A stretch of DNA of 64,000 nucleotides from Escherichia phage KKE7M, in sequence record PQ356295.1. The stretch is one strand, 5' to 3'. Shown here in pieces: positions 22,943-35,313 of this stretch. Made by a program: the position numbers and the translations under genes. Positions within the stretch are counted from its first letter, which is position 1, and each line of letters opens with the position of its first letter. The notes beneath the pieces were generated by a model. That model ran no database searches. It had not been told where the DNA came from and saw only the letters and a program-made list of their open reading frames with translations.

Positions 22943-22963
22943 GATAATGATTATCATTTGCAT
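22943..22963. promoter_or_regulatory. Fur-box-like AT-rich palindrome
   Basis: GATAATGATTATCATTTGCAT. Confidence 0.3.
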
Positions 22964-23456: not shown

Positions 23457-23499
23457 TGCTAATGATACGCTTGCTAATTATATTTCTTGTTATAATTAT

Positions 23500-23826
23500 T
23501 GTATGAAATGATTACGGTATGAAATGATTATTTAGGTAATAGATAGTAAGGTAAAGATTAGATCATAAATAGATAGGATATTAATTATTTAGTAATGTTA
23601 CTAACAATTTAATAGTTACTTTGTGCAACAATTCGATAGATTATAGTTATAGTTTTAAAGGTTAGATAGATTATATTTAGCTTGGTAATGATTTATATTA
23701 GTTATTGTTGTTTAATATAAGGTTATCAATGAGATAGTAACAGTAAGTTATAAATAAAGGTGAAATAATTAGCTTTAATTTAGTTAGATAACTTATTATT
23801 TTATAGGTTAGATGGTCATAAGTTAA
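23500..23826. repeat. AT-rich iteron-like short repeats
   Basis: Dense reiteration of TAGATAG / GGTTAGAT / GATTATA words in about 330 bp without ORFs. Confidence 0.35.
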
Positions 23827-23899
23827 GAATGATTATCATTATTGCATTATGCAGTTTATTGCATAAATAATCAGCTATAAATGAGAATGATTATTATTT
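23827..23899. promoter_or_regulatory. pair of Fur-box-like palindromes
   Basis: GAATGATTATCATTATTGCATTATGC and GAGAATGATTATTATTT. Confidence 0.3.
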
Positions 23900-24104
23900 A
23901 AGAGGAAAGACAAGAAAAAGGCTGTTTTTGCCAGATAGTTACATGGAGAAATTAAAAATAAGCGGTCTAAAACACGTTGTAAGCGCCTTATGATCTTCAT
24001 GGTATGGTTGTTCATCTGCTCCTTGATTAGCTCGATACCGCGATCTATTCACTTTTTTCGGTGAACGTTTTTGATAGGTAAAAGCTATCATCTTTATTTA
24101 GGTA

Positions 24105-24130
24105 AAAAGAAAGGGCGCTTTGTGCGCCCT
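24105..24130 (-). terminator. rho-independent terminator (minus strand)
   Basis: GGGCGC-ACAAA-GCGCCC hairpin followed by TTTCTTTTT on minus strand after gene stop. Confidence 0.6.
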
Positions 24131-24145
24131 GGTGTGAAATGTTAT

Positions 24146-24529
24146 TTACTGATAAGCTGGATCGTTTGTTATATCAATCCAATGAGCTAAATTAATTTTA
24201 TTTTTTGCTTTCATTTTCTCGATCAAACGTTCGGCTAATGTCTCGGAACGAATATAAACATGCTCGCTAAAATCTTGCCCCGTTTCCTCGTCGATCATCT
24301 CGCGATATTCAATTTTCCCGATAAACGCATGATTCAGCGCATAAGTTTTACCCGTGTACCAGTTGTGCAAATGAATCTCACATTTATAATCATCGCTATA
24401 ACCTTCGGTTGTTCTAACTTCAACCAGATCGCCTTTAAACACTGATAAGCACCACATAGGATCACGATCTACAGCGCCGTTAAAGTCTTTACCGTTTACA
24501 GTAGCCGCCAGGTTGATGATATTGCTCAT
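24146..24529 (-). CDS. hypothetical protein (about 127 aa)
   Basis: Start trimmed to ATG with CGAGGAAT RBS downstream of a sigma70-like promoter. Confidence 0.6.
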   Translation of the reverse strand: MSNIINLAATVNGKDFNGAVDRDPMWCLSVFKGDLVEVRTTEGYSDDYKCEIHLHNWYTGKTYALNHAFIGKIEYREMIDEETGQDFSEHVYIRSETLAERLIEKMKAKNKINLAHWIDITNDPAYQ

Positions 24530-24575
24530 GGTGATTCCTCGTTTACCGTTTAAAATGATTTGCCCTACGTGATAA

Positions 24576-24604
24576 ATAATAATGTAAGCGCGATCCGGTG
24601 TCAA
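24576..24604 (-). promoter_or_regulatory. sigma70-like promoter (TTGACA-17-TATTAT), minus strand
   Basis: Consensus -35 and good -10 about 45 nt upstream of start codon. Confidence 0.5.
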
Positions 24605-24616
24605 TAAGAAAGTTAA

Positions 24617-24853
24617 TTATTTTGCATAATCAATAACAGCGCAGATTTTATCATTTACATCTTGTAAATCAAAAGCATAGGCGATCTTACCTTGCAATTT
24701 CCCACGGGTGAAACAGATACGATAAACGCCGTTTTTACTATCCTCTTCTGATTTTAGTATTTTTGCAACCGTTGCAATTAACAGATCATCAGAGTAAGCG
24801 ATAAAGCCACCACGTAAAATAGGTGATTTTTTGAGGATCATGACTTCTTTCAT
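24617..24853 (-). CDS. hypothetical protein (78 aa)
   Basis: AGGAAAAAG RBS upstream. Confidence 0.55.
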   Translation of the reverse strand: MKEVMILKKSPILRGGFIAYSDDLLIATVAKILKSEEDSKNGVYRICFTRGKLQGKIAYAFDLQDVNDKICAVIDYAK

Positions 24854-24901
24854 TTTCTTTTTCCTGTTTTCGTTTTGGGTATGTTCTACCCTCTAAAAAC
24901 A

Positions 24902-24930
24902 ATATTAAACTGCTATGATTTATCGGTCAA
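24902..24930 (-). promoter_or_regulatory. sigma70-like promoter (TTGACC-17-TAATAT), minus strand
   Basis: -35/-10 pair about 50 nt upstream of 24853 start. Confidence 0.45.
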
Positions 24931-25275
24931 TAGATGAGATTGTAAAGATTTGATAGTTTATTCCTTTGATGTTTTGTTGTTTGATAGTTATTAGCTATCA
25001 ATATATAGCGGGATCTTCCGGTGATTATCTTCCCCTGTCCCCAGGTGCCGCCCGTTCCATAATAATAATCAAAAGCAGGGTAAAAGGCAAGATAAAAAGC
25101 AAATTATTTCCTATGTGCTTTAAACGCTCTAAACAGCTTTATAACAGCTTTTTCATCCTGGTAAGGGGATTAATCATCCCTACCTTGTTTAAGCGGTTAC
25201 AGTCGGTTTTAGATGGTTTTACGCCACCTTTACGCCTATTCTTTACGTGTTGTTTCCATCGTGAAAAAAGAATAC

Positions 25276-25308
25276 AAAAAAGGGCGCTTAGTGCGCCCCT
25301 TTCTTTTA
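25276..25308. terminator. bidirectional rho-independent terminator
   Basis: GGGCGC-TTAGT-GCGCCC hairpin flanked by A-run and T-run. Confidence 0.6.
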
Positions 25309-25315
25309 CCGTGTA

Positions 25316-25705
25316 TTAATATTCGTTATAATACATCGCTAATTTTTCATCAAAAGCCGATTGACGATCAGCATACTCCCAAAACATTTCCTGATCCTGT
25401 TGGTCATCTTCATCCATCATGTTAAACTGTGCTACTTCCTGGTAAGTGATCGCCATATTATAACGATAGGTGATCTCTTCTGCGATGTTTTCCGGTAAAG
25501 ATGATTCTACACTGTCTAACAGCATATTTAACATCATTTCAGCCGCTTTTTCATCATTATCAAAGCAGTAAGCAGACCATGCCGCATGATGCTTATTCTT
25601 CATCTTTGCAATCAAGCCATTGACTAAAAAAGGCGCTACGTTGTTAACGATACCCTGTAAAGATTGGAATTTTTCAACGTTAGAAACAGAAACCAGGTTG
25701 CGCAT
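25316..25705 (-). CDS. hypothetical protein (about 129 aa)
   Basis: Start trimmed to ATG downstream of promoter-hairpin cassette; AAAAAGG RBS. Confidence 0.6.
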   Translation of the reverse strand: MRNLVSVSNVEKFQSLQGIVNNVAPFLVNGLIAKMKNKHHAAWSAYCFDNDEKAAEMMLNMLLDSVESSLPENIAEEITYRYNMAITYQEVAQFNMMDEDDQQDQEMFWEYADRQSAFDEKLAMYYNEY

Positions 25706-25728
25706 AGTATTTACCTTTTTGATTACCT

Positions 25729-25787
25729 GGCGGGAAACCATTTCCCGCCTACGTGGTAAATAATACCATACTGGGGATCGGTGTCAA
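25729..25787 (-). promoter_or_regulatory. promoter + leader-hairpin cassette 1 (TTGACA-17-ATTATT then GGCGGGAAA-TGG-TTTCCCGCC)
   Basis: On minus strand: consensus -35, -10, then perfect 9-bp GC-rich hairpin, then RBS and ATG. Confidence 0.6.
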
Positions 25788-25793
25788 TACTTT

Positions 25794-26180
25794 TTATTCA
25801 ATATAAATCAAATTATCTTCACCAATGTAAGCATGCACCGATGGCATTAATTTAGCGGCATTTGTTAGGCGGTTCGCCGTGTTAGTGGTGTATATTTCAG
25901 GGCGATCCCAAAAGCCTACGCCGTGACCGTTACGGGTAAAATGTAAATCATTCCCGATCTGGTTTGCTGTAGCGCCGTCGCTCATTGCCTCAGAGATAGC
26001 TGCAACATTGGCATTACAAAAGGCGGTCACATCGCTGGTAATACGTTTCAGGGCGCTAGAAGAAAAATCATAATCGTCTAGATTCTCAATATATTCCCCA
26101 TTGTGATCCGTCGCTGGTTCGGCAAAAATAAAGGCTTCTTTATAGCCGTTGATCATTTCGTTAATGATTTCTGTTTTCAT
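25794..26180 (-). CDS. hypothetical protein (128 aa)
   Basis: ATGA overlap with upstream gene. Confidence 0.6.
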   Translation of the reverse strand: MKTEIINEMINGYKEAFIFAEPATDHNGEYIENLDDYDFSSSALKRITSDVTAFCNANVAAISEAMSDGATANQIGNDLHFTRNGHGVGFWDRPEIYTTNTANRLTNAAKLMPSVHAYIGEDNLIYIE

Positions 26181-26392
26181 GCTGTACGCTCAACAATAAT
26201 AATGGTTTGCGGGATCTCGTTTTCTACTACTATCAAGGCTTTTTTCTGCGTGATAGATATCTTTACCCGCTTCAGCGTGGCGGTAAAGTCTTTCATTTCG
26301 TCACGTGGTGTTTTAGTGCAATACCAGATCTCAGGTTTACCTATTTGCAAGCCGCGTAAAAATTCCGTTTTACCTGTCTTATTCGTGATCAT
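26177..26392 (-). CDS. hypothetical protein (about 71 aa)
   Basis: ATG with AAGGTGA RBS. Confidence 0.5.
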   Translation of the reverse strand: MITNKTGKTEFLRGLQIGKPEIWYCTKTPRDEMKDFTATLKRVKISITQKKALIVVENEIPQTIIIVERTA

Positions 26393-26402
26393 TTGTTTCA
26401 CC

Positions 26403-26507
26403 TTATCCAATACCGTGGGAAGATAGGATCATGTTAGCCATAGTTGCAATCACTCCAACCGATAACGCCAGGCCCACTATTACAACCGTGAAAATTTTCT
26501 CTAACAT
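26403..26507 (-). CDS. tiny hydrophobic peptide, about 34 aa
   Basis: GAGGGTAGC RBS directly downstream of cassette 2; one TM helix; not in ORF track. Confidence 0.35.
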   Translation of the reverse strand: MLEKIFTVVIVGLALSVGVIATMANMILSSHGIG

Positions 26508-26525
26508 GATGCTACCCTCATTAGT

Positions 26526-26587
26526 GGGCGTTGCCTTATTGCCCCGCCCTATGTGATACATATTATCAGCTTATTAGCCGTTGTCAA
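26526..26587 (-). promoter_or_regulatory. promoter + leader-hairpin cassette 2 (TTGACA-16-TAATAT, variant hairpin)
   Basis: Same architecture as cassette 1; hairpin variant GGGCGGGGCAA...GCAACGCCC. Confidence 0.55.
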
Positions 26588-26692
26588 TTACTTTTTTAAA
26601 CTTCTTTCAAAGAGAAGATCATCGATCTCAGAAACAATAAGCGTTATCAAAGGAATAATAACCGCCGCGCACATCATGGTAAGAATAATCAT
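26588..26692 (-). CDS. tiny hydrophobic peptide, about 34 aa
   Basis: ATG downstream of cassette 3; AGAGAGAA ribosome site; not in ORF track. Confidence 0.35.
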   Translation of the reverse strand: MIILTMMCAAVIIPLITLIVSEIDDLLFERSLKK

Positions 26693-26709
26693 TTTAGTTC
26701 TCTCTATTC

Positions 26710-26769
26710 TGGCGGGAAACCATTTCCCGCCCTACGTGGTACACTTTACCAGATAACCGCATATTGTCA
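26710..26769 (-). promoter_or_regulatory. promoter + leader-hairpin cassette 3 (TTGACA-16-TAAAGT + GGCGGGAAA-TGG-TTTCCCGCC)
   Basis: Identical hairpin to cassette 1. Confidence 0.6.
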
Positions 26770-26771
26770 AA

Positions 26772-26966
26772 CTATTTTTTACAAGGGATCAGTAAACTTC
26801 TCGCTACTGCTTCACGAAAACCTTTACTTTTTATTAGATCTATTGTTGCAGGGTGACAAGTAAAAGCCTTTGACCATTTTTGATCACCTGGTTTACGGGC
26901 GAAAATGTATACTTCCCCGTCAATTTCATCCCAACGAGTATTGCTTGTTAGTTTTTTAAGCGCCAT
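26772..26966 (-). CDS. hypothetical protein (about 64 aa)
   Basis: Start trimmed to ATG preceded by AAAGAGAAATC leader downstream of cassette 4. Confidence 0.5.
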   Translation of the reverse strand: MALKKLTSNTRWDEIDGEVYIFARKPGDQKWSKAFTCHPATIDLIKSKGFREAVARSLLIPCKK

Positions 26967-26987
26967 GATGATTTCTCTTTTAGTTGT

Positions 26988-27045
26988 GAGCGGCACTATT
27001 GCCGCCCTACGCAATACATTCTACCCTATTTATAATTGTTGTCAA
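26988..27045 (-). promoter_or_regulatory. promoter + leader-hairpin cassette 4 (TTGACA-16-TAGAAT + GCGGCA-ATAG-TGCCGC)
   Basis: Hairpin variant retains pairing via compensatory changes. Confidence 0.55.
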
Positions 27046-27046
27046 A

Positions 27047-27316
27047 CTATTTTTTCAAGCTCGCCCAGTCAAAACACGGCGGGATCTCGTTAAAACTTGT
27101 GCCCTGTAAAGCACATAATTTTTTAGCAATAGCCGCCGTGACCTGGCGCTGTACGCGCGGATCTGCTACTGATTGGAGAAAGTAGGCGGCTTTATATGTG
27201 ATCATGCTTTCGCCTGTTTCCTTGTTAACATGATGCACTATTTTAGCCTTATCATCTTTTACCAGGGTGTAACCGGATTCGATGGCCTTGATTGCAACGT
27301 CCAATGATATTTTCAT
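27047..27316 (-). CDS. hypothetical protein (89 aa)
   Basis: AAAGAGATAAATC leader then ATG, directly after hairpin. Confidence 0.6.
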   Translation of the reverse strand: MKISLDVAIKAIESGYTLVKDDKAKIVHHVNKETGESMITYKAAYFLQSVADPRVQRQVTAAIAKKLCALQGTSFNEIPPCFDWASLKK

Positions 27317-27335
27317 GATTTATCTCTTTATTGAT

Positions 27336-27355
27336 GGCGGGGAATACTCCCCGCC
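27336..27355 (-). promoter_or_regulatory. intergenic leader hairpin without own promoter (GGCGGGG-AGTATT-CCCCGCC)
   Basis: GC-rich hairpin between two same-operon genes; no U-tract. Confidence 0.4.
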
Positions 27356-27362
27356 TTATTAA

Positions 27363-27533
27363 TTACTCTTCATCGTCGCCGTTGTAGTATTCAATGCCGT
27401 TTTCATCGGTTACGGTAATATTAACGCCACCGATAGCAACACGATCACGGGCAAACGTCATGGCTTCATTTAAATCTTCAGACCAAAAAATATTGTGACC
27501 TTTGCGCGATACGTAAAACATAGTCGGGATCAT
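27363..27533 (-). CDS. small protein, about 56 aa
   Basis: AGAAGAGAAACAAATC leader then ATG downstream of cassette 6; not in ORF track. Confidence 0.5.
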   Translation of the reverse strand: MIPTMFYVSRKGHNIFWSEDLNEAMTFARDRVAIGGVNITVTDENGIEYYNGDDEE

Positions 27534-27557
27534 GATTTGTTTCTCTTCTGCTGTGAG

Positions 27558-27616
27558 CGGGAAACCATTTCCCGCCCTATGTGATAAACTTTACTACGTT
27601 GTTTGCCTACTGTCAA
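27558..27616 (-). promoter_or_regulatory. promoter + leader-hairpin cassette 6 (TTGACA-17-TAAAGT + GCGGGAAA-TGG-TTTCCCGC)
   Basis: Same architecture. Confidence 0.6.
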
Positions 27617-27617
27617 A

Positions 27618-27902
27618 TTATTTTTTAATGTTTTGCCCTACAAAATTGATCACATCTTTAAGCTGTTTCTCAGTCATGATCGTGCCTGGTAGTTCCTCTT
27701 TGATTTCTTGCGGTAAATAGATATTACCGCGCCAGGTTAATAAACAACCGTTTTGATCTTCGCAGATAGAATAAGAGAAGATCCACTCATTATCATTCTC
27801 AAGCTCCCAAAAGCACAAAAAATCTTCTTTCCCTAAGTTTTCAACGGTTAAGCATAAGCCGCGACGTGCTGCATAGTTGGAAAGTGCTTTTGTGATCTTC
27901 AT
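27618..27902 (-). CDS. hypothetical protein (94 aa)
   Basis: AGAAGAGATAAGAT leader then ATG downstream of cassette 7. Confidence 0.6.
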   Translation of the reverse strand: MKITKALSNYAARRGLCLTVENLGKEDFLCFWELENDNEWIFSYSICEDQNGCLLTWRGNIYLPQEIKEELPGTIMTEKQLKDVINFVGQNIKK

Positions 27903-27921
27903 ATCTTATCTCTTCTGTTAA

Positions 27922-27985
27922 GGCGGGAAAACCATTTCCCCGCTCTATGAGATACAATATACCCCTTATCAGGTGTGCTGTCAAT
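27922..27985 (-). promoter_or_regulatory. promoter + leader-hairpin cassette 7 (TTGACA-17-TATATT + GCGGGGAAA-TGG-TTTTCCCGCC)
   Basis: Same architecture, 1-nt hairpin variant. Confidence 0.6.
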
Positions 27986-28308
27986 CAATAATCTTTAATA
28001 TTTTCCACATTTACAAAAGTGTGTTTATTTTCTAAGTTTTCGCCGTACCATTGCCCAATGTTGATTTCTGCGGTGCGCAACCAGGACATGCCGCGTTCTA
28101 TCTTTTTGCTTGCAATGTCGATCCGGCTTTTACATAGTGCTTTCGCTTGCAATGTAAAAACACTATTGCCCTGTAATGCTTCCAGGTCATCATGTGCAAG
28201 GCGATACTCTTTAAAGCCTGATTCTATCATTTCAATAGCATCAAGTAAACGCGCGCGATGATAGAAAAAATCAGAGTTATCCAAATAAACACCGATCACA
28301 GATTTCAT
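27985..28308 (-). CDS. hypothetical protein (about 107 aa)
   Basis: Start trimmed to ATG with AAAAGGG RBS. Confidence 0.6.
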   Translation of the reverse strand: MKSVIGVYLDNSDFFYHRARLLDAIEMIESGFKEYRLAHDDLEALQGNSVFTLQAKALCKSRIDIASKKIERGMSWLRTAEINIGQWYGENLENKHTFVNVENIKDY

Positions 28309-28329
28309 AATTTTACCCTTTTGTTTGCG

Positions 28330-28379
28330 GCCTTTGCCGTTTTCAAGATATAGTTTAAAGCATAACAAAAAATTGTCAA
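28330..28379 (-). promoter_or_regulatory. sigma70-like promoter (TTGACA ... TAAACT), minus strand
   Basis: Consensus -35 with plausible -10 upstream of 28308 start; no GGCGGG hairpin. Confidence 0.4.
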
Positions 28380-28408
28380 GCCTTTAAAGCGTACAACTAT
28401 AAAACCTA

Positions 28409-28528
28409 TTAAAACACAATGTATAACAACATGGCTATAGTAGCAATACAACATAAAGCCATGCTTGTTTTCCTTCCTTCCTCGTATGCTGGATTTATTA
28501 CGCTATATTGTACGGGAATAATTTTCAT
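28409..28528 (-). CDS. tiny hydrophobic peptide, about 39 aa
   Basis: AAGGAAACAGC RBS; not in ORF track. Confidence 0.3.
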   Translation of the reverse strand: MKIIPVQYSVINPAYEEGRKTSMALCCIATIAMLLYIVF

Positions 28529-28537
28529 GCTGTTTCC

Positions 28538-28633
28538 TTAATGTCTTAAAACGTGGTTTACAATAGAAACAAGTATACAGAAGAAAAAAGATCCTGACAA
28601 TAAGATCCCGAAAAATAAATGTAAATAGGGCAT
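28538..28633 (-). CDS. tiny hydrophobic peptide, 31 aa
   Basis: AAGGAGTAAAACC RBS 2 nt after upstream stop; codon-by-codon check gives MPYLHLFFGILLSGSFFFCILVSIVNHVLRH. Confidence 0.35.
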   Translation of the reverse strand: MPYLHLFFGILLSGSFFFCILVSIVNHVLRH

Positions 28634-28637
28634 GGTT

Positions 28638-28940
28638 TTACTCCTTAAAAAAATCATTGACAATTAAACTGATAACGCCCAGCACCAGATCACCAGGTAG
28701 CGCCGCGCTTTCGTTGTTGCTTGTTTGCACTTCCTCACTAGTACCAGCATGATAGATTGCATGGTAAGCAATAGTATAATAACCTTTCGTTATTTCTTTA
28801 AGATTAATGATTAGCACGTTATTTGTTTCATCTTGAAACAATTTAGCGGTGATAGTATTGTTTTCTTTTACACTATCGACTTTTATTGATGGATCATTTA
28901 CACCAGAAAAAAGAAAAAACGTTTTAGCTATGCCGTTCAT
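28638..28940 (-). CDS. hypothetical protein (100 aa)
   Basis: AAAGGAGAAC RBS. Confidence 0.6.
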   Translation of the reverse strand: MNGIAKTFFLFSGVNDPSIKVDSVKENNTITAKLFQDETNNVLIINLKEITKGYYTIAYHAIYHAGTSEEVQTSNNESAALPGDLVLGVISLIVNDFFKE

Positions 28941-28962
28941 GTAGTTCTCCTTTGTTGTGTGT

Positions 28963-28991
28963 ATCTTATAACGTGCTTTCTATGTTGTCAA
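28963..28991 (-). promoter_or_regulatory. sigma70-like promoter (TTGACA-17-TAAGAT), minus strand
   Basis: -35 overlaps stop codon of upstream gene. Confidence 0.45.
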
Positions 28992-29389
28992 TCTTTTATT
29001 TCGGTGCATTTTGCTAGGGTATACGTTGCAAGTGCTGACACTAGTTTTTCATTGTTACGATCTGCGGCTGTACTGTGTACTTTTTGGATACTTTTTAACC
29101 ACGGTGTAAAATTTTGAGTAGTGAGCACACTGGTAATAATTTCACATGGCACGTTTTCATTTAAGCCATTAACAATAGATTTATCTATTTTTGCCGTTAA
29201 TTGTGTAACAGCACCATAAGCGATCATGTGTGAATCCTCCATGATTTCATCGGGGATCGCATTATTAATGATCATGACGTTTTCCATTGCATCAACGGCG
29301 CTTAATTCTGCTACTGTGGAGGATATCGCCGCGTGAGATGTTCCAACCATGCCAAAAGAGATTAAACCAGCGATCAATAATTTTTTCAT
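28988..29389 (-). CDS. putative secreted/periplasmic protein with signal peptide (about 133 aa)
   Basis: MKKLLIAGLISFGMVGTSHA signal-peptide-like N-terminus; GAGGCAAGAA RBS. Confidence 0.6.
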   Translation of the reverse strand: MKKLLIAGLISFGMVGTSHAAISSTVAELSAVDAMENVMIINNAIPDEIMEDSHMIAYGAVTQLTAKIDKSIVNGLNENVPCEIITSVLTTQNFTPWLKSIQKVHSTAADRNNEKLVSALATYTLAKCTEIKD

Positions 29390-29397
29390 TTCTTGCC

Positions 29398-29580
29398 TCA
29401 TATATGTTTTATTGAGATTATATTGTCACTATATACAACGTTTTTCAACGTGTCAATAAAAATTTTATTGTCTTCAATCCCCAGGATCACGCCGCTAGTT
29501 ATAAAGCCATATTGATCACGATATCTGGCGCATAACCTTTGCCCCTGGGCTAGTGCCTTGCTTATTTCGTCTAATTTCAT
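29398..29580 (-). CDS. hypothetical protein (about 60 aa)
   Basis: Internal ATG preceded by CAGGAGC RBS. Confidence 0.5.
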   Translation of the reverse strand: MKLDEISKALAQGQRLCARYRDQYGFITSGVILGIEDNKIFIDTLKNVVYSDNIISIKHI

Positions 29581-29667
29581 TTTTAAAGCTCCTGTAAAGC
29601 CGTCTAACGTTGATTTATAGGCTTGCCCTGGCGTTACCATTGCCTATGGGTAACAAGCCTCTATATA

Positions 29668-29700
29668 AGCTAAAAGGGCGCTTATTGCGCCCTTTTTGTT
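29668..29700. terminator. bidirectional rho-independent terminator
   Basis: AGGGCGC-TTATT-GCGCCCT hairpin flanked by A-run and T-run. Confidence 0.55.
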
Positions 29701-29836
29701 ATTCGTTCCAGTGTCTTTTTGTGCTGCGATCTCTTTTTGTTTTGTTCCGCTTATCGCCTTTCTTGGTAATCTCTTCGTTCCAATTTTTACGCGCCTTGCT
29801 GCGGTTGAATTTTTCGATCTGCTGTGATGCGTTCAT
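29699..29836 (-). CDS. small highly basic protein, about 45 aa
   Basis: AAGAGGAAAAAAC RBS; K/R-rich; not in ORF track. Confidence 0.4.
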   Translation of the reverse strand: MNASQQIEKFNRSKARKNWNEEITKKGDKRNKTKRDRSTKRHWNE

Positions 29837-29851
29837 GTTTTTTCCTCTTAA

Positions 29852-30211
29852 TTACGCAACGTTATGCTGTTTTGCCAGGGTTACAATCATGCTTGCAATA
29901 TATAACCAATAATTTTCCCTCTCACGGGTAACGGTTGTTTCTTTGCTTGTTTCTTTTATGTACTTCCATTCAATTAACAAGTGATCGATCTCGTTATAAT
30001 CAAAAGCAATATTGACTTCTGACGGTAAACCTTGTAACCATGAGGCTATTGCCTTGATCACGTTATAATTGTAACGTTTTTGATTATCGGGATACCAGTA
30101 TTCAGAGTTAAAACGGCGCATCAGTTCGGTGATCTTTTCTTTTTCGGTTGTAGTACCATCAAAAGAAATAGCCGACACAATGTAAGTTTTAATTGCTTTT
30201 ACTGATTTCAT
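29852..30211 (-). CDS. hypothetical protein (119 aa)
   Basis: AAAGAGATAAGATT leader then ATG downstream of cassette 8. Confidence 0.6.
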   Translation of the reverse strand: MKSVKAIKTYIVSAISFDGTTTEKEKITELMRRFNSEYWYPDNQKRYNYNVIKAIASWLQGLPSEVNIAFDYNEIDHLLIEWKYIKETSKETTVTRERENYWLYIASMIVTLAKQHNVA

Positions 30212-30231
30212 AATCTTATCTCTTTATTGAT

Positions 30232-30290
30232 GGCGGGAAACCATTTCCCGCCGTTGTTGTTACTTTACTTATAAATGATGCTACTGTCAA
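30232..30290 (-). promoter_or_regulatory. promoter + leader-hairpin cassette 8 (TTGACA-17-TAAAGT + GGCGGGAAA-TGG-TTTCCCGCC)
   Basis: Identical hairpin. Confidence 0.6.
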
Positions 30291-30297
30291 GCGAATA

Positions 30298-30468
30298 TTA
30301 TTTATTTTTTAACGTTAATGTTCCCAGCTTATCAGCGTGACGCAGACCAGGAAAGATCCATTTTCCTGATTCATCTTTCACCGGGGCTTTAAGCGTAGCG
30401 CCCAGGTTGGCGGCGTTAACTTTACGTGCAACGTTGCGAGCGGCTTCACGGGTGGCGAAAGTGATCAT
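30298..30468 (-). CDS. small protein, about 56 aa
   Basis: AGAAGAGGAAACATC leader then ATG downstream of cassette 9; not in ORF track. Confidence 0.45.
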   Translation of the reverse strand: MITFATREAARNVARKVNAANLGATLKAPVKDESGKWIFPGLRHADKLGTLTLKNK

Positions 30469-30491
30469 GATGTTTCCTCTTCTCTTTGTTA

Positions 30492-30554
30492 GGCGGTGGG
30501 CTATTCCACCGCCTTAATGAATATAATTTACTTTATTGATGGCCCTGGAGTCAA
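30492..30554 (-). promoter_or_regulatory. promoter + leader-hairpin cassette 9 (TTGACT-18-TAAATT + GGCGGTGG-AATAGC-CCACCGCC)
   Basis: Variant hairpin with compensatory substitutions; -35 embedded in a second short palindrome. Confidence 0.5.
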
Positions 30555-30572
30555 GGCCATCTAAAAATAAAT

Positions 30573-30914
30573 TTACTCGTTTTCTTCCAGCTCTGAAAGA
30601 TCTTCTTTCACTTCTTCGAGCTCTGTCTGCAATTCTTGGTACTCTTCATCGTCCTCAATATCCAGGCTGCCGATGTAGTCGCTAAATCCGCAGCGGTAAG
30701 CGATAGGATCTAACTCCTTGAGGATACGCGACGGAAGAAAAGAAATGTCTCCGATCATAATTTCGCCGTAGATCTCGTCTAACCATTCATCATAGTTTTC
30801 GTCGTACTTGTCCTCGTCGATTTCAAAGTTATCGATCTTGTTCTCAAGGTCTGCGATCTGTTTTTTCAGCGCGGCGATCTGCATAGCTTTTTCTGCGGCG
30901 GTCATAGTAGTCAT
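30573..30914 (-). CDS. acidic coiled-coil protein (113 aa)
   Basis: AAAGGAGAAAAC RBS; Asp/Glu-rich with heptad-like pattern. Confidence 0.6.
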   Translation of the reverse strand: MTTMTAAEKAMQIAALKKQIADLENKIDNFEIDEDKYDENYDEWLDEIYGEIMIGDISFLPSRILKELDPIAYRCGFSDYIGSLDIEDDEEYQELQTELEEVKEDLSELEENE

Positions 30915-30939
30915 GGTGTTTTCTCCTTTTGTGTATTCT

Positions 30940-30994
30940 GGGAAGTTTTCCCGTTTACGTGTTTAAGTATATCGATTTTAGTTATCTTGTCAAT
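30940..30994 (-). promoter_or_regulatory. sigma70-like promoter (TTGACA-16-TATACT) with degenerate leader hairpin
   Basis: GGGAA-AAC-TTCCC mini-hairpin downstream of -10. Confidence 0.45.
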
Positions 30995-31001
30995 ATTATT
31001 T

Positions 31002-31229
31002 TTAGTTTAACTGATCCAGGCACAACAAGCGATCAACATTTAGATCGGTTAGGCTAATCGTTGGCACTTGGTAGGCTTCGATGTACTCAACGCTCGACCA
31101 TTGCCCAAAGTTAGCGACCGCCCAGCTATTCAAGGAGGAGTGAAGATCATCCCCTTTCTTCTCGGTGATAACTGCTACTACCTGGGATATTCCAACCGTG
31201 CCGGATACGCGAACAATAACGATAGCCAT
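31002..31229 (-). CDS. hypothetical protein (75 aa)
   Basis: AAAGAAAGG leader then ATG downstream of cassette 10. Confidence 0.55.
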   Translation of the reverse strand: MAIVIVRVSGTVGISQVVAVITEKKGDDLHSSLNSWAVANFGQWSSVEYIEAYQVPTISLTDLNVDRLLCLDQLN

Positions 31230-31251
31230 AATGTTAACCTTTCTTTGATTT

Positions 31252-31311
31252 GGCGGGAAACCATTTCCCGCCCTATGCGATAAACTATACCAGATTAAAA
31301 AACGTTGTCAA
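31252..31311 (-). promoter_or_regulatory. promoter + leader-hairpin cassette 10 (TTGACA-16-TATAGT + GGCGGGAAA-TGG-TTTCCCGCC)
   Basis: Identical hairpin. Confidence 0.6.
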
Positions 31312-31320
31312 CTGCTTTTA

Positions 31321-31560
31321 TTACATTCCTACCATAGCGGCGCGGATACTGGTTTTACTGAATTTATAGCCATCTGGCGTAGTATTTTGGCCCATTTCGT
31401 TAAGTAGTGACATCATTTCACGCGCGGCGTTATCTTTATTGTTGTTCACGGCTATAAATTCTTTTGCCATATTATAAAAACCTGGATCGTTATTAATCCA
31501 AAGGCTTACATTCCAATGAGTTTTATTTTTGTGACCGTTGTACATTTTAGATTTAGCCAT
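31321..31560 (-). CDS. hypothetical protein (79 aa)
   Basis: AAAAGAGATTAACATC leader then ATG downstream of cassette 11. Confidence 0.6.
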   Translation of the reverse strand: MAKSKMYNGHKNKTHWNVSLWINNDPGFYNMAKEFIAVNNNKDNAAREMMSLLNEMGQNTTPDGYKFSKTSIRAAMVGM

Positions 31561-31585
31561 GATGTTAATCTCTTTTTCAGTGAGG

Positions 31586-31642
31586 CGGGAACTATTCCCG
31601 CTCTCGATATAAGTATTATATGCTTTTTATTCGTGCTGTCAA
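31586..31642 (-). promoter_or_regulatory. promoter + leader-hairpin cassette 11 (TTGACA-16-TATAAT + GCGGGAA-TAGT-TCCCGC)
   Basis: Perfect consensus -35/-10; variant hairpin. Confidence 0.6.
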
Positions 31643-31648
31643 TGCTTT

Positions 31649-32014
31649 TTATAAATCTTTTTTGCGTTTAACATCGCTTGCATGACTGTATACAGCGATC
31701 CCATTGTCACGGCAAAAACGGGAAAGGTAAGCATAATTTGAAAAGTCTTTACCTTCCAGGTTGATAACCTTGCTAAACTCTTCCAGGGCAACGGTATCAA
31801 AATGATCACCATAACCATATTGAAACGGAACGTTAACGACTTCAATCAGTTTACCGCCGATCTCAACGTCAACCATCAAAGAGAAATAAGTATTACCATA
31901 CGACTTTTGAAACCAGCGACGGGCGCTAATATGTACCGCTTCAATGCTGGATAGCTCAATTTTAGCAGTGTTAGCCAGGGTAGCATAAGCAGAAACATTG
32001 ATATTTTTAGCCAT
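31649..32014 (-). CDS. hypothetical protein (121 aa)
   Basis: AAAAGAGATTAAAGAC leader then ATG. Confidence 0.6.
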   Translation of the reverse strand: MAKNINVSAYATLANTAKIELSSIEAVHISARRWFQKSYGNTYFSLMVDVEIGGKLIEVVNVPFQYGYGDHFDTVALEEFSKVINLEGKDFSNYAYLSRFCRDNGIAVYSHASDVKRKKDL

Positions 32015-32040
32015 AGTCTTTAATCTCTTTTGATTAGTTA

Positions 32041-32090
32041 GGAGTATTCCCGATAAAAGTTATTATGCTTGTGCTATCGTTCGTTGTCAA
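32041..32090 (-). promoter_or_regulatory. sigma70-like promoter (TTGACA-17-CATAAT)
   Basis: -35/-10 upstream of 32014 start; hairpin degenerate. Confidence 0.45.
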
Positions 32091-32109
32091 TAGCACAAGA
32101 CTAAAACTT

Positions 32110-32289
32110 TTAACGATAATCATCATAGGCTTTATTGACCTGGCGAATATAGCATTCAAAAGCTAGATCAATAGATTTATATTCACGGATATAATCACCA
32201 TAGGAAACCACATACATTTCTATAGCTTCCTCATATGCCAGGATGATAGAATCTAAACCTACGATCTCAGTCTTTGCAATAATAGCCAT
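32110..32289 (-). CDS. small protein, about 59 aa
   Basis: CTAAGGAATAAAAGC RBS; not in ORF track; coordinates approximate. Confidence 0.45.
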   Translation of the reverse strand: MAIIAKTEIVGLDSIILAYEEAIEMYVVSYGDYIREYKSIDLAFECYIRQVNKAYDDYR

Positions 32290-32348
32290 GCTTTTATTCC
32301 TTAGTAATGTTTCAATCTATATAAGCATTATAGCTTACTGATTTCAGG

Positions 32349-32432
32349 TGTCAAGTGATTTTTTATTTCACCTTATGGGGCGTTGCCCCGCTTTATGTGG
32401 TACATATTACGGGGCTTATTTGCATATGTCAA
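32349..32432 (-). promoter_or_regulatory. tandem promoters (TTGACA-17-TAATAT and TTGACA-16-TATAAT) flanking a GGGGC-AAC-GCCCC hairpin
   Basis: Two consensus promoters 70 bp apart on minus strand upstream of 32289 start. Confidence 0.5.
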
Positions 32433-32435
32433 GCC

Positions 32436-32990
32436 TTACACAATGCAATTTTCATAATTTTTTAGGGCTTGTCTTTTTTCCTCTTCTGTCGGCATGTATG
32501 GCTGGATCTCTTCCTCTTCCAGAGTAGGCATGATTTCTTCCTCTTCCTCCTGGTCGCCCTGGTCTTCCTCTTGCGCTATGGTAACAAGTTTATTGATCTT
32601 CTCCTGGGCTTTAATCAATTTTGCATCTAGCACCATTTTAGCGGTGTTGTATACAGTCCAGGCCATGCGCTTTTCTTCGTATGCCTTATCTAGTGCGGCT
32701 AATTTAGCGGGATACTCTTCCAACACCTTAAAAGCCGGATCAATGTTGTACAAGGGATTATTTTTAGCGTCATCGCTTGGATCTGCGGCGCTTGCAATGT
32801 CAGCGTTACCATTCGCCAGCCATCCAGGACGAACGGATCGCGTCCTGGTGTTGCCGTTGCTCTTTGCCGCTCGATTTCCTATCTGCTCCCCGCTATACCC
32901 TACCATGTGATCGATCATGTCATCTGGTATTATGCGCGGATCATTTGCGTCATGCTTTACCCAGGACTGGATCACATATTCACGCCCCAT
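32436..32990 (-). CDS. hypothetical protein with acidic C-terminal region (184 aa)
   Basis: AGAAGAGG RBS upstream. Confidence 0.6.
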   Translation of the reverse strand: MGREYVIQSWVKHDANDPRIIPDDMIDHMVGYSGEQIGNRAAKSNGNTRTRSVRPGWLANGNADIASAADPSDDAKNNPLYNIDPAFKVLEEYPAKLAALDKAYEEKRMAWTVYNTAKMVLDAKLIKAQEKINKLVTIAQEEDQGDQEEEEEIMPTLEEEEIQPYMPTEEEKRQALKNYENCIV

Positions 32991-32991
32991 G

Positions 32992-33252
32992 CTAGTTCGC
33001 CTCTTCTGTTAGTAGTTTACATACCTTAAACATGCTTGCAGCGTCTTTTGACGGTAGCCAGCCTATTCGATACACTCCAGGATCTGGATTAGTTACATCA
33101 GTCAGTTGCGCGTTGCGATGATTAAAAATAGTGTAACCGCCGCCAGCACGGGGATAAACATTATCTTTAAACCTGATAGCGTATCTCGCCAGGTCGAACG
33201 TTGTAGCATGTTCAAAAGCGATCACATTATCAAAAACTTTTAGAAAAAACAA
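32992..33252 (-). CDS. hypothetical protein (86 aa), TTG start
   Basis: GGGGAGGA RBS 5 nt before TTG. Confidence 0.5.
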   Translation of the reverse strand: MFFLKVFDNVIAFEHATTFDLARYAIRFKDNVYPRAGGGYTIFNHRNAQLTDVTNPDPGVYRIGWLPSKDAASMFKVCKLLTEEAN

Positions 33253-33254
33253 GA

Positions 33255-33401
33255 TTATCCTCCCCAGCGTTTAAAGCCCGTTGCACGGTTATTTTTTAGC
33301 TCTCGTTTTAGTCTCTTGCAACGGTTTACAAGTGCAAACCGTGCCGGAGTCGTAACAGTAGCGCCGTTTTTGGTATGAATACTCATTACATATTGTTTCA
33401 T
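33255..33401 (-). CDS. small basic protein, about 48 aa
   Basis: AGGATAAAACTTT then ATG downstream of cassette 13; not in ORF track. Confidence 0.4.
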   Translation of the reverse strand: MKQYVMSIHTKNGATVTTPARFALVNRCKRLKRELKNNRATGFKRWGG

Positions 33402-33420
33402 AAAGTTTTATCCTATATAA

Positions 33421-33473
33421 GCGGGAACAATTCCCGCTTTAAGATAGCTTATCAGGTTTTAGTGCAATGTCAA
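33421..33473 (-). promoter_or_regulatory. promoter + leader-hairpin cassette 13 (TTGACA-16-TAAGCT + GCGGGAA-TTGT-TCCCGC)
   Basis: Same architecture, variant loop. Confidence 0.55.
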
Positions 33474-33479
33474 CCGTTT

Positions 33480-33842
33480 TTATTCGTAAATTTTACCGCT
33501 TTCTACCCATACCATAACACGGCGCATGTTATCCCATGCATCTTGTTGCAGATTTAAGGCATGCAATTCTTCCGTGGTGCTCATACCTAGAACGGGCTTG
33601 CTATATGTTACAAAGAGATCGCCAGCATATTCATAAGCCAGGGTAAGATCACATTGAATCATCTTTTTAATCATAGCATCAAGCATCATATTAGCGGCAT
33701 GTTGATCACGTTTCAGCGGTAACGTTGCGATCTGTGTGCGATAGCTTTCGATCCGTGCATCCACTGCATCACGCGAAAGGTTTTTCACGTCATCGCGGAA
33801 AGATACCAGATTAAACATGATAGTATTGATTTGCTTGCTCAT
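33480..33842 (-). CDS. hypothetical protein (120 aa)
   Basis: AAAGAAAGGGTAACACA leader then ATG downstream of cassette 14. Confidence 0.6.
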   Translation of the reverse strand: MSKQINTIMFNLVSFRDDVKNLSRDAVDARIESYRTQIATLPLKRDQHAANMMLDAMIKKMIQCDLTLAYEYAGDLFVTYSKPVLGMSTTEELHALNLQQDAWDNMRRVMVWVESGKIYE

Positions 33843-33864
33843 TGTGTTACCCTTTCTTTGATTT

Positions 33865-33924
33865 GGCGGGAAACCATTTCCCGCCTTATGTGGTATATAT
33901 TACCAGATTATTTTTCAGTGTCAA
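33865..33924 (-). promoter_or_regulatory. promoter + leader-hairpin cassette 14 (TTGACA-16-TAATAT + GGCGGGAAA-TGG-TTTCCCGCC)
   Basis: Identical hairpin. Confidence 0.6.
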
Positions 33925-33927
33925 GCC

Positions 33928-34200
33928 TTAAAACAAAAATGCTATATCTTGCGCTTTTAGTGTAGTGTCGATCATTTTCGGGCTTTTATAATCGACAAAG
34001 CGCGCGGTTTTTTCAATAACGAAGCCGAGGTAATCTTGTTTATTGAAATCACATTCTTTTTTAAATGTTTCCCGTGCCACTGTGATCGCTGCGTCCAGGG
34101 ATAAACGTCCATCAATATTGATGTTAGCGAAAGATCCGCCACCGCGCATAGGTTTACCAGTGATACCCTTTACGATCATTGATGCGCTATATGATGCCAT
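33928..34200 (-). CDS. hypothetical protein (90 aa)
   Basis: AGAAGAGAGAAATAATC leader then ATG downstream of cassette 15. Confidence 0.6.
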   Translation of the reverse strand: MASYSASMIVKGITGKPMRGGGSFANINIDGRLSLDAAITVARETFKKECDFNKQDYLGFVIEKTARFVDYKSPKMIDTTLKAQDIAFLF

Positions 34201-34224
34201 GATTATTTCTCTCTTCTGTTATGA

Positions 34225-34280
34225 GCGGCACTATTGCCGCCCTATGTGATACATCTTATCAGATTAAAAAACGTTGTCAA
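34225..34280 (-). promoter_or_regulatory. promoter + leader-hairpin cassette 15 (TTGACA + GCGGCA-ATAG-TGCCGC)
   Basis: Same variant hairpin as cassette 4. Confidence 0.55.
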
Positions 34281-34289
34281 GAATATTTT

Positions 34290-34385
34290 TTAGAAAATAA
34301 CAACCGCTACTACAATCCAAAATGGAACGGCTAGAATGATAGCGTTAATCGTTCCAACCGTCAAGCTGTTTTCTTTCTTGATCAT
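34290..34385 (-). CDS. tiny hydrophobic peptide, 31 aa
   Basis: First ORF after the outermost promoter of the array; weak RBS; not in ORF track. Confidence 0.25.
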   Translation of the reverse strand: MIKKENSLTVGTINAIILAVPFWIVVAVVIF

Positions 34386-34512
34386 CGTTATCAACCTTTT
34401 ATAAGTAATGTTATTGTGACGGTGGATTGTGGAGATCCTCACCTTTGCCCGTCCTGCATTGCACCCGCCTTTTATTTATTGTCGTTGTGCCTTGCCCCCC
34501 TCGACAAGATGA

Positions 34513-34541
34513 ATAATATGTTATTACCCTGGTAACGTCAA
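34513..34541 (-). promoter_or_regulatory. sigma70-like promoter (TTGACG-17-TATTAT), outermost promoter of reverse array
   Basis: -35/-10 pair followed by about 120-nt GC-rich leader. Confidence 0.4.
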
Positions 34542-34651
34542 CCATTTTTTTAATCTTTTTTCATTTCTTTTTTGCTTGCTATCTATAAAGGAAACGGCTA
34601 TTATCTTTCTACCGCGCCAACCAGGGCGCACATCAAAGAAAGGGCGATACC

Positions 34652-34918
34652 ATGACAAATACTCCTTTACATCTCATGCACTCATTGGGCTGGCAAGGCG
34701 GCACGGTGCACCAGGTAGCAAGCGCAACGGGCTTAAAGGTTGAAACCGTTCTCAACCTGGGCGATCATAAGGTGGAAGAGATAGATCATTTTGATACGTT
34801 CGCAAATGGTTATCTATGGGCTTGCAGTGGCGGCGGGGAAAGCAAGATCCCACCAGGGGCGCGGGGCGACATGTATTTTTGGTTAGGTGTCCTATCCTGG
34901 CAAGAAAACAAAAAATAA
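34652..34918 (+). CDS. hypothetical protein (88 aa), GC-rich codon usage
   Basis: Forward ORF in otherwise gene-free region; weak RBS; composition differs from neighbours. Confidence 0.4.
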   Translation: MTNTPLHLMHSLGWQGGTVHQVASATGLKVETVLNLGDHKVEEIDHFDTFANGYLWACSGGGESKIPPGARGDMYFWLGVLSWQENKK

Positions 34919-34921
34919 TCT

Positions 34922-34950
34922 TGACAAGCCCAGGGATCGGGCTTATACTG
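34922..34950 (+). promoter_or_regulatory. sigma70-like promoter (TTGACA-17-TATACT) driving GC-rich non-coding transcript
   Basis: Consensus -35/-10 with no credible ORF downstream for more than 700 nt. Confidence 0.45.
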
Positions 34951-35180
34951 TTTTACATACAGAAGAGGAAGCGCCACCCCCACGGCGTAAAGGCGGGGCT
35001 AACATACCAGGGGGGCACTGGTTGGAAGGTTGATCGCCGGTAGCTCGTCTAAAATAAATTTGTAAAGAAATGTAAAGATAAAAATAATCGCTTGCTTTTG
35101 TTGTTGGTTATGCTATTCTTATTGTATGGCGAGGGGACACGGGAGCGCGAGACAAACACCACCCCTGCGCGTTATTCTCT

Positions 35181-35292
35181 AAATGAGAAAAATTCTCATT
35201 TGCTAACGATTCTCATTCTCTTACTGAGAATGATTATCACTTACATAATTAAATGATAATGATTCTCATTTACAAATGAGAATGATTATCAT
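35181..35292. promoter_or_regulatory. cluster of Fur-box-like palindromes
   Basis: AAATGAGAAAAATTCTCATTT, GAGAATGATTATCAC and AAATGATAATGATTCTCATTTACAAATGAGAATGATTATCAT. Confidence 0.35.
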
Positions 35293-35313
35293 ACGCACAC
35301 CTATAAAAACACG

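Follow-up and report, generated by a model that had tools for sequence, protein, structure and literature searches.

The subject of this analysis is an array of small genes in a 64,000-nucleotide (nt) stretch of Escherichia phage KKE7M (sequence record PQ356295.1; the whole stretch is called the window below, and all positions are counted in it), where a cassette of a sigma-70-type promoter, a GC-rich hairpin and a ribosome site recurs between the genes. The region comes from a Justusliebigvirus, a phi92-like coliphage of the Stephanstirmvirinae with a genome of ~147 kb, and has 95-97% identity to phi92-like coliphages, among which ESCO8 is the closest match to the array. This hyperplastic array occupies 24146-34545 and holds 31 genes, all on the minus strand and encoding 31-184 amino acids (aa), from g01 (34385-34290) to g31 (24529-24146). 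Nine of them have no promoter of their own and are translationally coupled or tightly packed behind another gene. The products of all 31 genes belong to PHROG families of unknown function or to no PHROG family at all, and the sole Pfam match of the array is that of g31 to PF06019 Phage_30_8 (E = 4e-29), the family of T4 gp30.8, whose function is unknown; a gene family is therefore common to the array and a non-essential region of T4. An earlier note on this DNA had described about 30 small genes, each wired to a cassette, and many tiny hydrophobic peptides among their products. The gene number and the reiteration of the cassette held up, but not the word "each", given nine genes without a promoter and six promoters without a hairpin; tiny hydrophobic peptides are indeed present, but are encoded by only 5 of the 31 genes. 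Two small proteins, g14 (29699-29836, 45 aa) and g04 (33255-33401, 48 aa), are very basic and rich in lysine and arginine, and may, speculatively, be candidate nucleic-acid binders that could act as partners of the hairpins.

A promoter-hairpin cassette is reiterated through the array

Scanning the minus strand for TTGACA (at most one mismatch), a spacer of 16-18 nt and TAnnnT gave 23 promoters in the array, 22 preceding genes and one orphan; two match at 12/12 positions, and six carry an extended -10. A strong hairpin follows 13 promoters and a weak one follows three more (g11, g20 and g30), while the promoters of g01, g07, g08, g16, g17 and g31 are hairpin-less. Further units are one strong hairpin without a promoter (27336-27355) and one full cassette without a gene (32375-32432). 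The combined pattern TTGACA-N16-18-TAnnnT-N9-14-GCGGS has 12 minus-strand matches, all within 25744-34280, against 0.01 expected.

Spacers that carry a full cassette are uniform in length (78-104 nt) and in order: the stop codon of the upstream gene, the promoter, ~7 nt, a C-A/G-T-A-G-G motif conserved in the start region between promoter and hairpin, the hairpin, an A-rich unpaired stretch with the ribosome site, and the ATG. The upstream stop codon often abuts or overlaps the -35 hexamer (TAATTTGACA, TGATTGACA), and the AAGAG-type ribosome site lies unpaired 6-9 nt before the ATG. The promoter scan, the gene map and the folding of the leaders thus agree with the earlier description of the module as a near-consensus sigma-70 promoter, a GC hairpin, an AAGAG-type ribosome site and an ATG.

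The hairpin lies in the predicted mRNA leader and its stem is maintained

The commonest hairpin is the 21-mer GGCGGGAAATGGTTTCCCGCC, present on the minus strand throughout, with exact copies at 25729, 26711, 30232, 31252 and 33865 and a copy with one mismatch at 27556, where shuffled sequences gave an expectation of 0; the five identical sites named in the earlier note are therefore real. Further stems are GCGGCA/TGCCGC (26988 and 34223), GGCGGGG/CCCCGCC (27336), GCGGGAA/TTCCCGC (31582 and 33419) and GGCGGTGG/CCACCGCC (30491). When re-checked against the window sequence, the coordinates and alternative stems in that note were right to within a few bases.

The transcription start was taken as the purine at the 8th nt past the -10 hexamer, a position predicted from the usual spacing and the pyrimidine-purine rule rather than mapped. 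The stem begins at or after this predicted start, so the cassette's own mRNA would contain it. In folds that begin at this position, the leaders of the 13 strong cassettes form a single hairpin with a predicted free energy (dG) of -11.7 to -18.7 kcal/mol and z-scores (z) of -2.4 to -5.9, and the hairpin-less leaders of g31, g07 and g08 provided internal negative controls of the folding. The predicted unpaired 5' tail before the stem, counted from the same start, is 0-5 nt, mostly 3-4, and in none of the folded leaders does the hairpin overlap or pair with the ribosome site. Across 16 phage loci the stem starts 6-16 nt past the -10 hexamer, mostly 10-12, with one outlier at 3 nt. Its orientation is likewise fixed: the G-rich arm comes first in 33 of 33 distinct hairpin types downstream of sense-strand promoters in 16 phages, with 159 G against 40 C in the 5' arm, although a nominal p-value for this polarity overstates independence because the hairpin copies share ancestry. 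Fixed polarity and position would make sense for an element that is read in the transcript.

A MAFFT alignment of 16 raw leaders misplaced the 3' arms, and a gap-free 9-3-9 seed was built instead. As this seed was chosen for pairing, its 100% pairing is no unbiased test, and the leaders of g29 orthologs were used in its place. These were picked by the downstream protein and not by the hairpin, and come from nine phages of the Stephanstirmvirinae and Vequintavirinae with 43-72% protein identity. In them 97% of the stem cells are paired, compared with 33-64% when the partners are slid. Position 2 of the stem is GC, CG or AU and position 7 is AU, GC or GU, so that compensatory changes occur at two of the nine stem pairs, and several different stems coexist within one genome. 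In another leader Av-05 has GAGAG/CTCTC where TH18 has GCAAG/CTTGC, and the G.U pair in the g21 stem of the window corresponds to a compensated G-C pair in Antha and others. Together these changes make a modest case, from comparison of sequences, that the structure of the stem is maintained while its sequence is conserved too, the covariation being real but stemming from few events. The earlier proposal of selection on structure rather than on sequence is supported in so far as pairing is kept with different arms.

Gene gain, loss and exchange occur at the cassettes

In content the array is much less conserved than its flanks: it is covered to at least 80% in only 3 of 299 matching phage records (at 95-97% identity), whereas control segments of the same size on the two sides reach this coverage in 54 and 53 records. 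The control at 11500-21899 likewise contains ~30 small genes but lacks cassettes, and the plasticity therefore has to have more behind it than small genes. Aligning the window by BLAST with nine close relatives resolved about 13 distinct events with 38 breakpoints inside the array. Intergenic sequence, 24% of the array, contains 28 of the 38, and six more lie at most 6 nt from a gene edge; only four fall inside genes, which make up 72% of the array, and three of these are at most 9 nt from the edge.

The cassettes, ~80-100 nt long, are direct repeats that share up to ~70 nt, and at them relatives have lost, gained or replaced the intervening genes. In six of the nine close relatives g25 is missing together with half of each flanking cassette, and the flanks overlap by 27 nt. 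Reading the junction of this deletion directly in ESCO8 revealed a chimeric cassette, in which the g25-cassette promoter passes, within CAyrTAGGGCGGG, into the g26-cassette hairpin; in SD2 the genes g22-g24 are missing and the junction overlap is 71 nt. Between conserved promoter halves, relatives carry any of four contents in the g11 slot, and in the g30 slot they have three alleles. Chimeric cassettes at some junctions are what homologous recombination between cassettes is expected to leave, and the long junction homologies together with the chimeric cassette are, as read from the compared genomes, the specific evidence for such recombination. The earlier note had been reminded of the promoter-early-stem-loop (PeSL) cassettes of T4-type phages and had suggested checking whether gene gain and loss break at cassette boundaries; the 28 intergenic breakpoints and the junction in ESCO8 answer this positively.

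An insertion of 87 nt is found in ESCO8 (10311-10399), and also in cardinal and alia, at window position 31319-31321, between a stop codon and the next cassette. It holds a 26-codon open reading frame (MKHRSTYLTKRFSLDHKLGYYGRNRK) with its own ribosome site and no promoter.

The hairpin family is confined to one region and is lineage-specific

A covariance model of the hairpin with its flanks found 15 minus-strand sites, all within 25721-34250, and two marginal matches elsewhere in the 64-kb window. In the remaining 89 kb of the ESCO8 genome it found no site except one weak match beside the tail-sheath gene. Sensitive blastn with the whole cassette matched 130 phage records, mainly Stephanstirmvirinae-type genomes of ~130-156 kb together with two weak partial matches in other large phages; no T4-like phage was among these 130 records. 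The more distant relatives Av-05, TH18, PVP-SE1, GAP31 and KP13-26 have the same architecture with other stems, and an orthologous g29 cassette is present in these five and in EC152, R7 and GE_vB_MG. A peptide-pattern scan of IMG/VR with g29 gave three loci, two of which are known phages. The hairpin had no match in 5,426 complete E. coli genomes, and scanning 22000-37000 with the Rfam 15 covariance models gave only two sub-threshold matches at chance level; the hairpin is thus neither a known RNA family nor a host repeat.

Twenty-two records labelled 'Campylobacter phage' (~146 kb, host C. jejuni, unannotated; for example MG065639, MG065645, MG065656 and MG065689) have ~95% identity to the coliphage array, and are probably mislabelled or derived from a contaminating coliphage.

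In the literature and records searched, the cassette and its link to gene turnover are undescribed for phi92-, rV5- and PVP-SE1-like phages, although an earlier mention in the phi92 or PVP-SE1 genome papers is possible. The rV5 paper lists only 33 promoters and 20 terminators (PMC3606486), the phi92 database record annotates ribosome sites only, and a literature search for transcriptomics of the phi92/rV5/PVP-SE1 group returned nothing relevant.

Cassettes and terminators along the array

All units described here are on the minus strand, and dG is given in kcal/mol. The first promoter of the array (TTGACG, 34513-34541) has no cassette hairpin and is followed by a 128-nt leader to g01 (whole unit 34383-34541). 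The g02 cassette (34198-34280) has its promoter at 34253-34280, the hairpin GGGCGGCA-ATAG-TGCCGCTC at 34223-34242 and the ATG at 34200 (dG -14.4, z -4.0); that of g03 (33840-33924) joins an extended -10 promoter (33897-33924) to the hairpin GGCGGGAAA-TGG-TTTCCCGCC at 33865-33885 and an ATG at 33842 (dG -15.5, z -3.7). For g04 (33399-33473) the promoter lies at 33446-33473, the hairpin AAGCGGGAA-TTG-TTCCCGCTT at 33419-33439 and the ATG at 33401. Among near-identical phages the arms of this g04 hairpin are identical and its 3-nt loop is TTG, CTA or TAG; as CTA and TAG are reverse complementary, they bear the signature of a small inversion between perfect arms, by a DNA-level hairpin or a template-switch event.

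The orphan cassette (32375-32432) combines a promoter at 32404-32432 with the hairpin GCGGGGCAACGCCCCAT at 32375-32391 and precedes no gene; by analogy with the 'degraded' PeSLs of PMC4122927, it looks like a solo remnant of excision. Directly next to it lies the perfect promoter of g07 (32327-32354), which with that of g08 (32062-32090) forms a pair of promoter-only units without a hairpin (32012-32354).

Another perfect promoter (31615-31642) heads the g09 cassette (31558-31642), where the hairpin at 31582-31605 has the core GCGGGAA-TAG-TTCCCGC and the ATG is at 31560 (dG -15.3). The cassette of g10 (31227-31311; extended -10 promoter 31284-31311, hairpin 31252-31272, ATG 31229; dG -15.4) is followed by the weak one of g11 (30912-30993; promoter 30966-30993, GGGAA-AAC-TTCCC at 30940-30952, ATG 30914; dG -6.2, z -1.3). 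The most stable leader is that of g12 (30466-30554; promoter 30525-30554, ATG 30468), with the hairpin AGGCGGTGG-AATAGC-CCACCGCCT at 30491-30514 (dG -18.7, z -5.9). Beyond this leader hairpin, an extra inverted repeat, ATGGCC-TTGACTCCAG-GGCCAT at 30539-30560, encloses the -35 hexamer of g12, a position typical of RB49-type PeSL stem-loops. The g13 cassette (30209-30290) has its promoter at 30262-30290, its hairpin at 30232-30252 and its ATG at 30211 (dG -15.5).

Downstream of g13, two promoter-only units (28938-29456) serve g16 (promoter 29428-29456, within g15) and g17 (28963-28991), and g20 has a weak cassette (28306-28379; promoter 28352-28379, CGGC-AAAG-GCCG at 28328-28339, ATG 28308; dG -6.0). 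The hairpin of g21 (27900-27984; promoter 27956-27984, ATG 27902), GCGGGGAAA-TGG-TTTTCCCGC at 27923-27943, contains one G.U pair, and that of g22 (27531-27616; promoter 27588-27616, ATG 27533; dG -15.8), at 27555-27577, closes with a G.U pair. The hairpin-only unit of g23 (27314-27355; ATG 27316), GGCGGGGA-GTAT-TCCCCGCC at 27336-27355, scores 33.4 bits with the covariance model and has no promoter; it starts 8 nt past the g22 stop codon. The same arms and loop as before g02, GGGCGGCA-ATAG-TGCCGCTC, recur at 26988-27007 in the g24 cassette (26964-27045; promoter 27018-27045, ATG 26966; dG -15.1). Next come the cassettes of g25 (26690-26770; promoter 26743-26770, hairpin 26711-26731, ATG 26692), g26 (26505-26587; promoter 26560-26587, imperfect hairpin GGGCGGGGCAATAAGGCAACGCCC at 26526-26549, ATG 26507; dG -16.8) and g29 (25703-25787; extended -10 promoter 25760-25787, hairpin 25729-25749, ATG 25705). 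The weak cassette of g30 (24851-24930) starts from a TTGACC promoter at 24902-24930 and has GGGTA-GAACA-TACCC at 24877-24891 and an ATG at 24853 (dG -7.1, z -3.8), and the last, that of g31 (24527-24604; promoter 24576-24604, ATG 24529), is a degraded one which has lost any hairpin (dG -0.9) and retains the start motif CACGTAGGGC.

The array ends at a canonical intrinsic terminator on the minus strand (24109-24133), which has sisters with the same stem at 25278-25302 and 29672-29696; all three, AAAGGGCGC-loop-GCGCCCTTTT, carry U-tracts. At the cassette hairpins no intrinsic terminator was called on the coding (minus) strand, where the sequence 3' of the hairpins is A-rich, and the only terminator-like calls, at 27336, 30228 and 32376, are on the non-coding strand. 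The cassette hairpin was therefore rejected as an intrinsic terminator for want of a U-tract. The earlier note had made the same distinction, and its placing of the hairpin downstream of the promoter is borne out with respect to the predicted start.

Between the g29 terminator and g30 lies a gene-free spacer of 462 nt (24854-25315), which is kept in most relatives and replaced in cardinal. The one Rfam match in this spacer is at chance level; the spacer may encode a small RNA or a regulatory region.

Two long non-coding regions flank the array. They contain a 19-nt palindromic box, AATGAGAATGATTATCATT, with 11 matches (0.12 expected) clustered at 22732-22968, 23821-23898 and 35180-35300. This box is similar to the consensus of the E. 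coli Fur box, GATAATGATAATCATTATC, which itself has four matches with at most three mismatches (0.04 expected), and all of these boxes sit in the two flanking regions. Possible roles are as operators, bound by a phage regulator or by host Fur, or as a component of an origin. Beside the 35180-35300 cluster, a gene-free AT-rich stretch at 35314-35534 contains three iteron-like direct repeats of ~70 nt (AAxTTGAACTTTTCATTTT...AAAAACTTTAAATAA).

Possible workings of the cassette

At the level of sequence, the architecture of the cassette, its confinement to a single region, the maintenance of its stem and the turnover of genes at the cassettes are established. On balance we favor a reading in which the array is a PeSL-like modular early-gene system of a lineage-specific family, whose unit is probably both an expression cassette with an RNA-level leader hairpin and a recombination module. 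In such a system unmodified host RNA polymerase would use the near-consensus promoters straight after infection, one per small gene, and each mRNA from such a cassette promoter would begin with the hairpin. In the RNA, the hairpin would be a 5'-proximal protective or insulating structure that might slow 5'-end-dependent decay and keep the ribosome site free whatever gene comes next. The fixed 5'-proximal position, the free ribosome site and the tolerated changes in the stem fit an ompA-type 5' protective hairpin; a role as 5' stabilizer or insulator specifically is put forward tentatively, and we give it somewhat less than an even chance.

Several observations weigh against this reading. Six of the nine stem pairs are invariant among the g29 orthologs, and lineages have their preferred stems, GGCGGGAA in phi92-like and GCCGGGG in PVP-SE1-like phages, which would fit gene conversion and equally a sequence-specific binding partner. 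On the sense strand G.U mismatches outnumber A.C mismatches by 10 to 4, which is suggestive only (p = 0.18), and this asymmetry was not relied on as evidence that selection acts on the RNA. RppH and RNase E need two unpaired 5' nucleotides and prefer three or more (PMC8833179), so that protection would be partial at best, because the predicted tail of 3-4 unpaired nt suffices for both enzymes; beside this stands the second nucleotide of the leader, a U, which RppH disfavors. On the recombination side, long junction homology was found in only 2 of the about 13 events, the others having 6-16 nt, and purifying selection alone would enrich breakpoints in spacers. Finally, published PeSL stem-loops are reported to terminate transcription (PMC2839356).

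This last report leads to an unlikely but concrete alternative, that the hairpin is an attenuator or terminator damping read-through from the many promoters in tandem upstream and leaving each gene to depend mainly on its own promoter. In RB49, PeSL stem-loops cut downstream lacZ about as much as rrnB T1 does (PMC2839356); with twenty-odd strong tandem promoters and just three canonical terminators, transcription in the array would otherwise pile up, and the hairpin-only unit of g23 lies just past a stop codon. However, no cassette hairpin is followed by a U-tract, the downstream sequence being A-rich, whereas the array ends its transcription units with textbook hairpin-plus-U-tract terminators. 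A terminating hairpin downstream of its own promoter would also abort the transcripts of its own cassette, and a terminator has no need of a fixed distance from the -10, T4-type PeSL stem-loops occupying five different positions (PMC2839356). A dependence on a trans-acting factor is about as improbable: as DNA, the palindrome would be an operator (+5 to +25) through which a phage-encoded or host repressor turns early promoters off; as RNA, it would be bound by a phage protein, for instance an antiterminator of the N kind or a nuclease like RegB that marks early transcripts. The element is a perfect 9-3-9 inverted repeat placed shortly past the start, where operators classically lie, its sequence is largely conserved with a consensus of its own in each lineage, and the flanking C-A/G-T-A-G-G motif is conserved as well; the array encodes very basic small peptides such as g14, and in rV5-type phages, where sigma-70-type promoters and an Srd-like anti-sigma candidate have been noted, an early shut-off is to be expected (PMC3606486). 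Yet one genome contains several stems of 5-9 bp with loops of 3-6 nt, so neither half-site sequence nor spacing is fixed, the loop is free to vary among near-identical phages (TTG, CTA, TAG), asymmetric G.U pairs are tolerated, and a symmetric DNA operator would not be expected to show the strict G-arm-first polarity; the analysis identified no candidate for the binding protein, and Rfam gave no match. A simple DNA operator was accordingly rated unlikely, as stem length, loop length and sequence all vary within one genome.

Least likely of all, and in our view very improbable, is that the hairpins have no role in expression and are selfish or neutral palindromes, or mere recombination substrates, hitch-hiking near promoters where insertions are tolerated. 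The breakpoints and chimeric junctions do fall at cassettes, the inversion of the g04 loop (CTA against TAG) shows that DNA-level hairpin events happen, and identical 21-mers before unrelated genes suggest copying and spreading. Such elements, though, would hardly be kept before the same gene at 43-72% protein identity while the flanking leader diverges, nor at a constant distance and polarity relative to the promoter, and never in conflict with the ribosome site. A bolder proposal, to which we give little credence, makes the hairpin a cis-signal for a phage-encoded factor in an integron-like 'plug-and-play' array: it would tag early mRNAs for antitermination, protection or timed destruction and at the same time be the DNA site of active cassette exchange between co-infecting phages, a phage recombination or endonuclease function capturing cassettes there. 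It may be compatible with a stem consensus that differs by lineage, with the conserved C-A/G-T-A-G-G flank, with the strict polarity of the arms and with the inverted loop.

If the favored reading, a PeSL-like expression and recombination cassette, is true, the PeSL principle of a regulatory cassette that doubles as portable homology for the shuffling of accessory genes extends to unrelated large virulent phages. The principle would then look like a general solution, reached convergently, by which phages maintain a rapidly evolving 'toolbox' of genes for host takeover or against host defense. Phages of the phi92, rV5 and PVP-SE1 group have found wide use in therapy and biocontrol, and a defined 10-kb region would be the likeliest seat of strain differences in host range or defense evasion. 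The cassette would, moreover, be a compact natural part made of a strong promoter, a leader hairpin and a ribosome site.

Comparison with known systems

Apart from the PeSL cassettes, the array resembles known systems in single respects only, namely phage morons, integron arrays and 5' stabilizers. As in morons, small accessory genes bring their own promoter (concept in PMC2839356), but morons end in a terminator and have no conserved flanking repeats, whereas here the repeated cassette is the recombination substrate and the genes are not separated by terminators. With integron attC arrays it shares a tandem row of small promiscuous genes set apart by inverted repeats that are structured, only imperfectly conserved, and the sites of cassette gain and loss (PMC2839356); unlike integrons, it has no integrase or dedicated recombinase in or next to it, every cassette has its own promoter, and the junctions look like products of ordinary recombination at homology or microhomology. 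Lambda nut (boxB) and HK022 put are likewise RNA hairpins encoded a short way past early phage promoters. The hairpins of the array share this position, but lack a boxA-like partner, any known N-like protein and a match in Rfam, and are reiterated rather than placed once per operon. A further likeness, at the RNA level, is to the 5' stem-loop of the T7 phi10 leader used in pET vectors and to the 5' stabilizing stem-loops of the E. coli ompA and papA mRNAs, as far as these are described in the account of Emory, Bouvet and Belasco (1992) given in PMC3997798: a simple GC hairpin at the start of the transcript, here a predicted one, a stem sequence that in the array may likewise be interchangeable if pairing is kept, and a free ribosome site downstream. 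The array differs from them in its predicted tail, mostly 3-4 nt and usable by RppH and RNase E (PMC8833179), and in that the element is reiterated before more than 12 unrelated genes in a mobile cassette.

PeSL cassettes were described in the T4-type phages RB49/phi1, PST/T4 and nt-1/KVP40 (Arbiol et al. 2010, PMC2839356; Comeau et al. 2014, PMC4122927). Like them, the cassettes of the array are intergenic units reaching from the upstream stop codon through a strong sigma-70-like promoter, a G-run/C-run stem-loop and a Shine-Dalgarno sequence to the start codon, and they crowd together in a hyperplastic region, upstream of genes whose functions are unknown; cassettes bound the indels and gene replacements that distinguish close relatives, chimeric cassettes mark the junctions, and solo or degraded copies are present. 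Circular excision products, or mini-circles, are a further feature of PeSL cassettes. The present array differs from PeSLs in lineage, being found in Stephanstirmvirinae and Vequintavirinae rather than in T4-like phages, in which blastn detected no sequence similarity, and in the place of the stem-loop, which here lies in the mRNA leader at a near-fixed distance; in PeSLs it precedes the promoter, lies inside it or overlaps it, or comes just ahead of the start site. The stem is here followed by no U-rich or -10-derived tail, and a terminator role would thus be unlikely. Published PeSLs differ in sequence between T4-like lineages, so the PeSL class is architectural rather than homologous, and by its sequence features the array is best taken as one that works like a PeSL system and is not a homologous member. 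A pattern so far described only for T4-type phages thus appears, as judged from the genomes compared, in a non-T4 lineage with its stem-loop moved into the mRNA leader.

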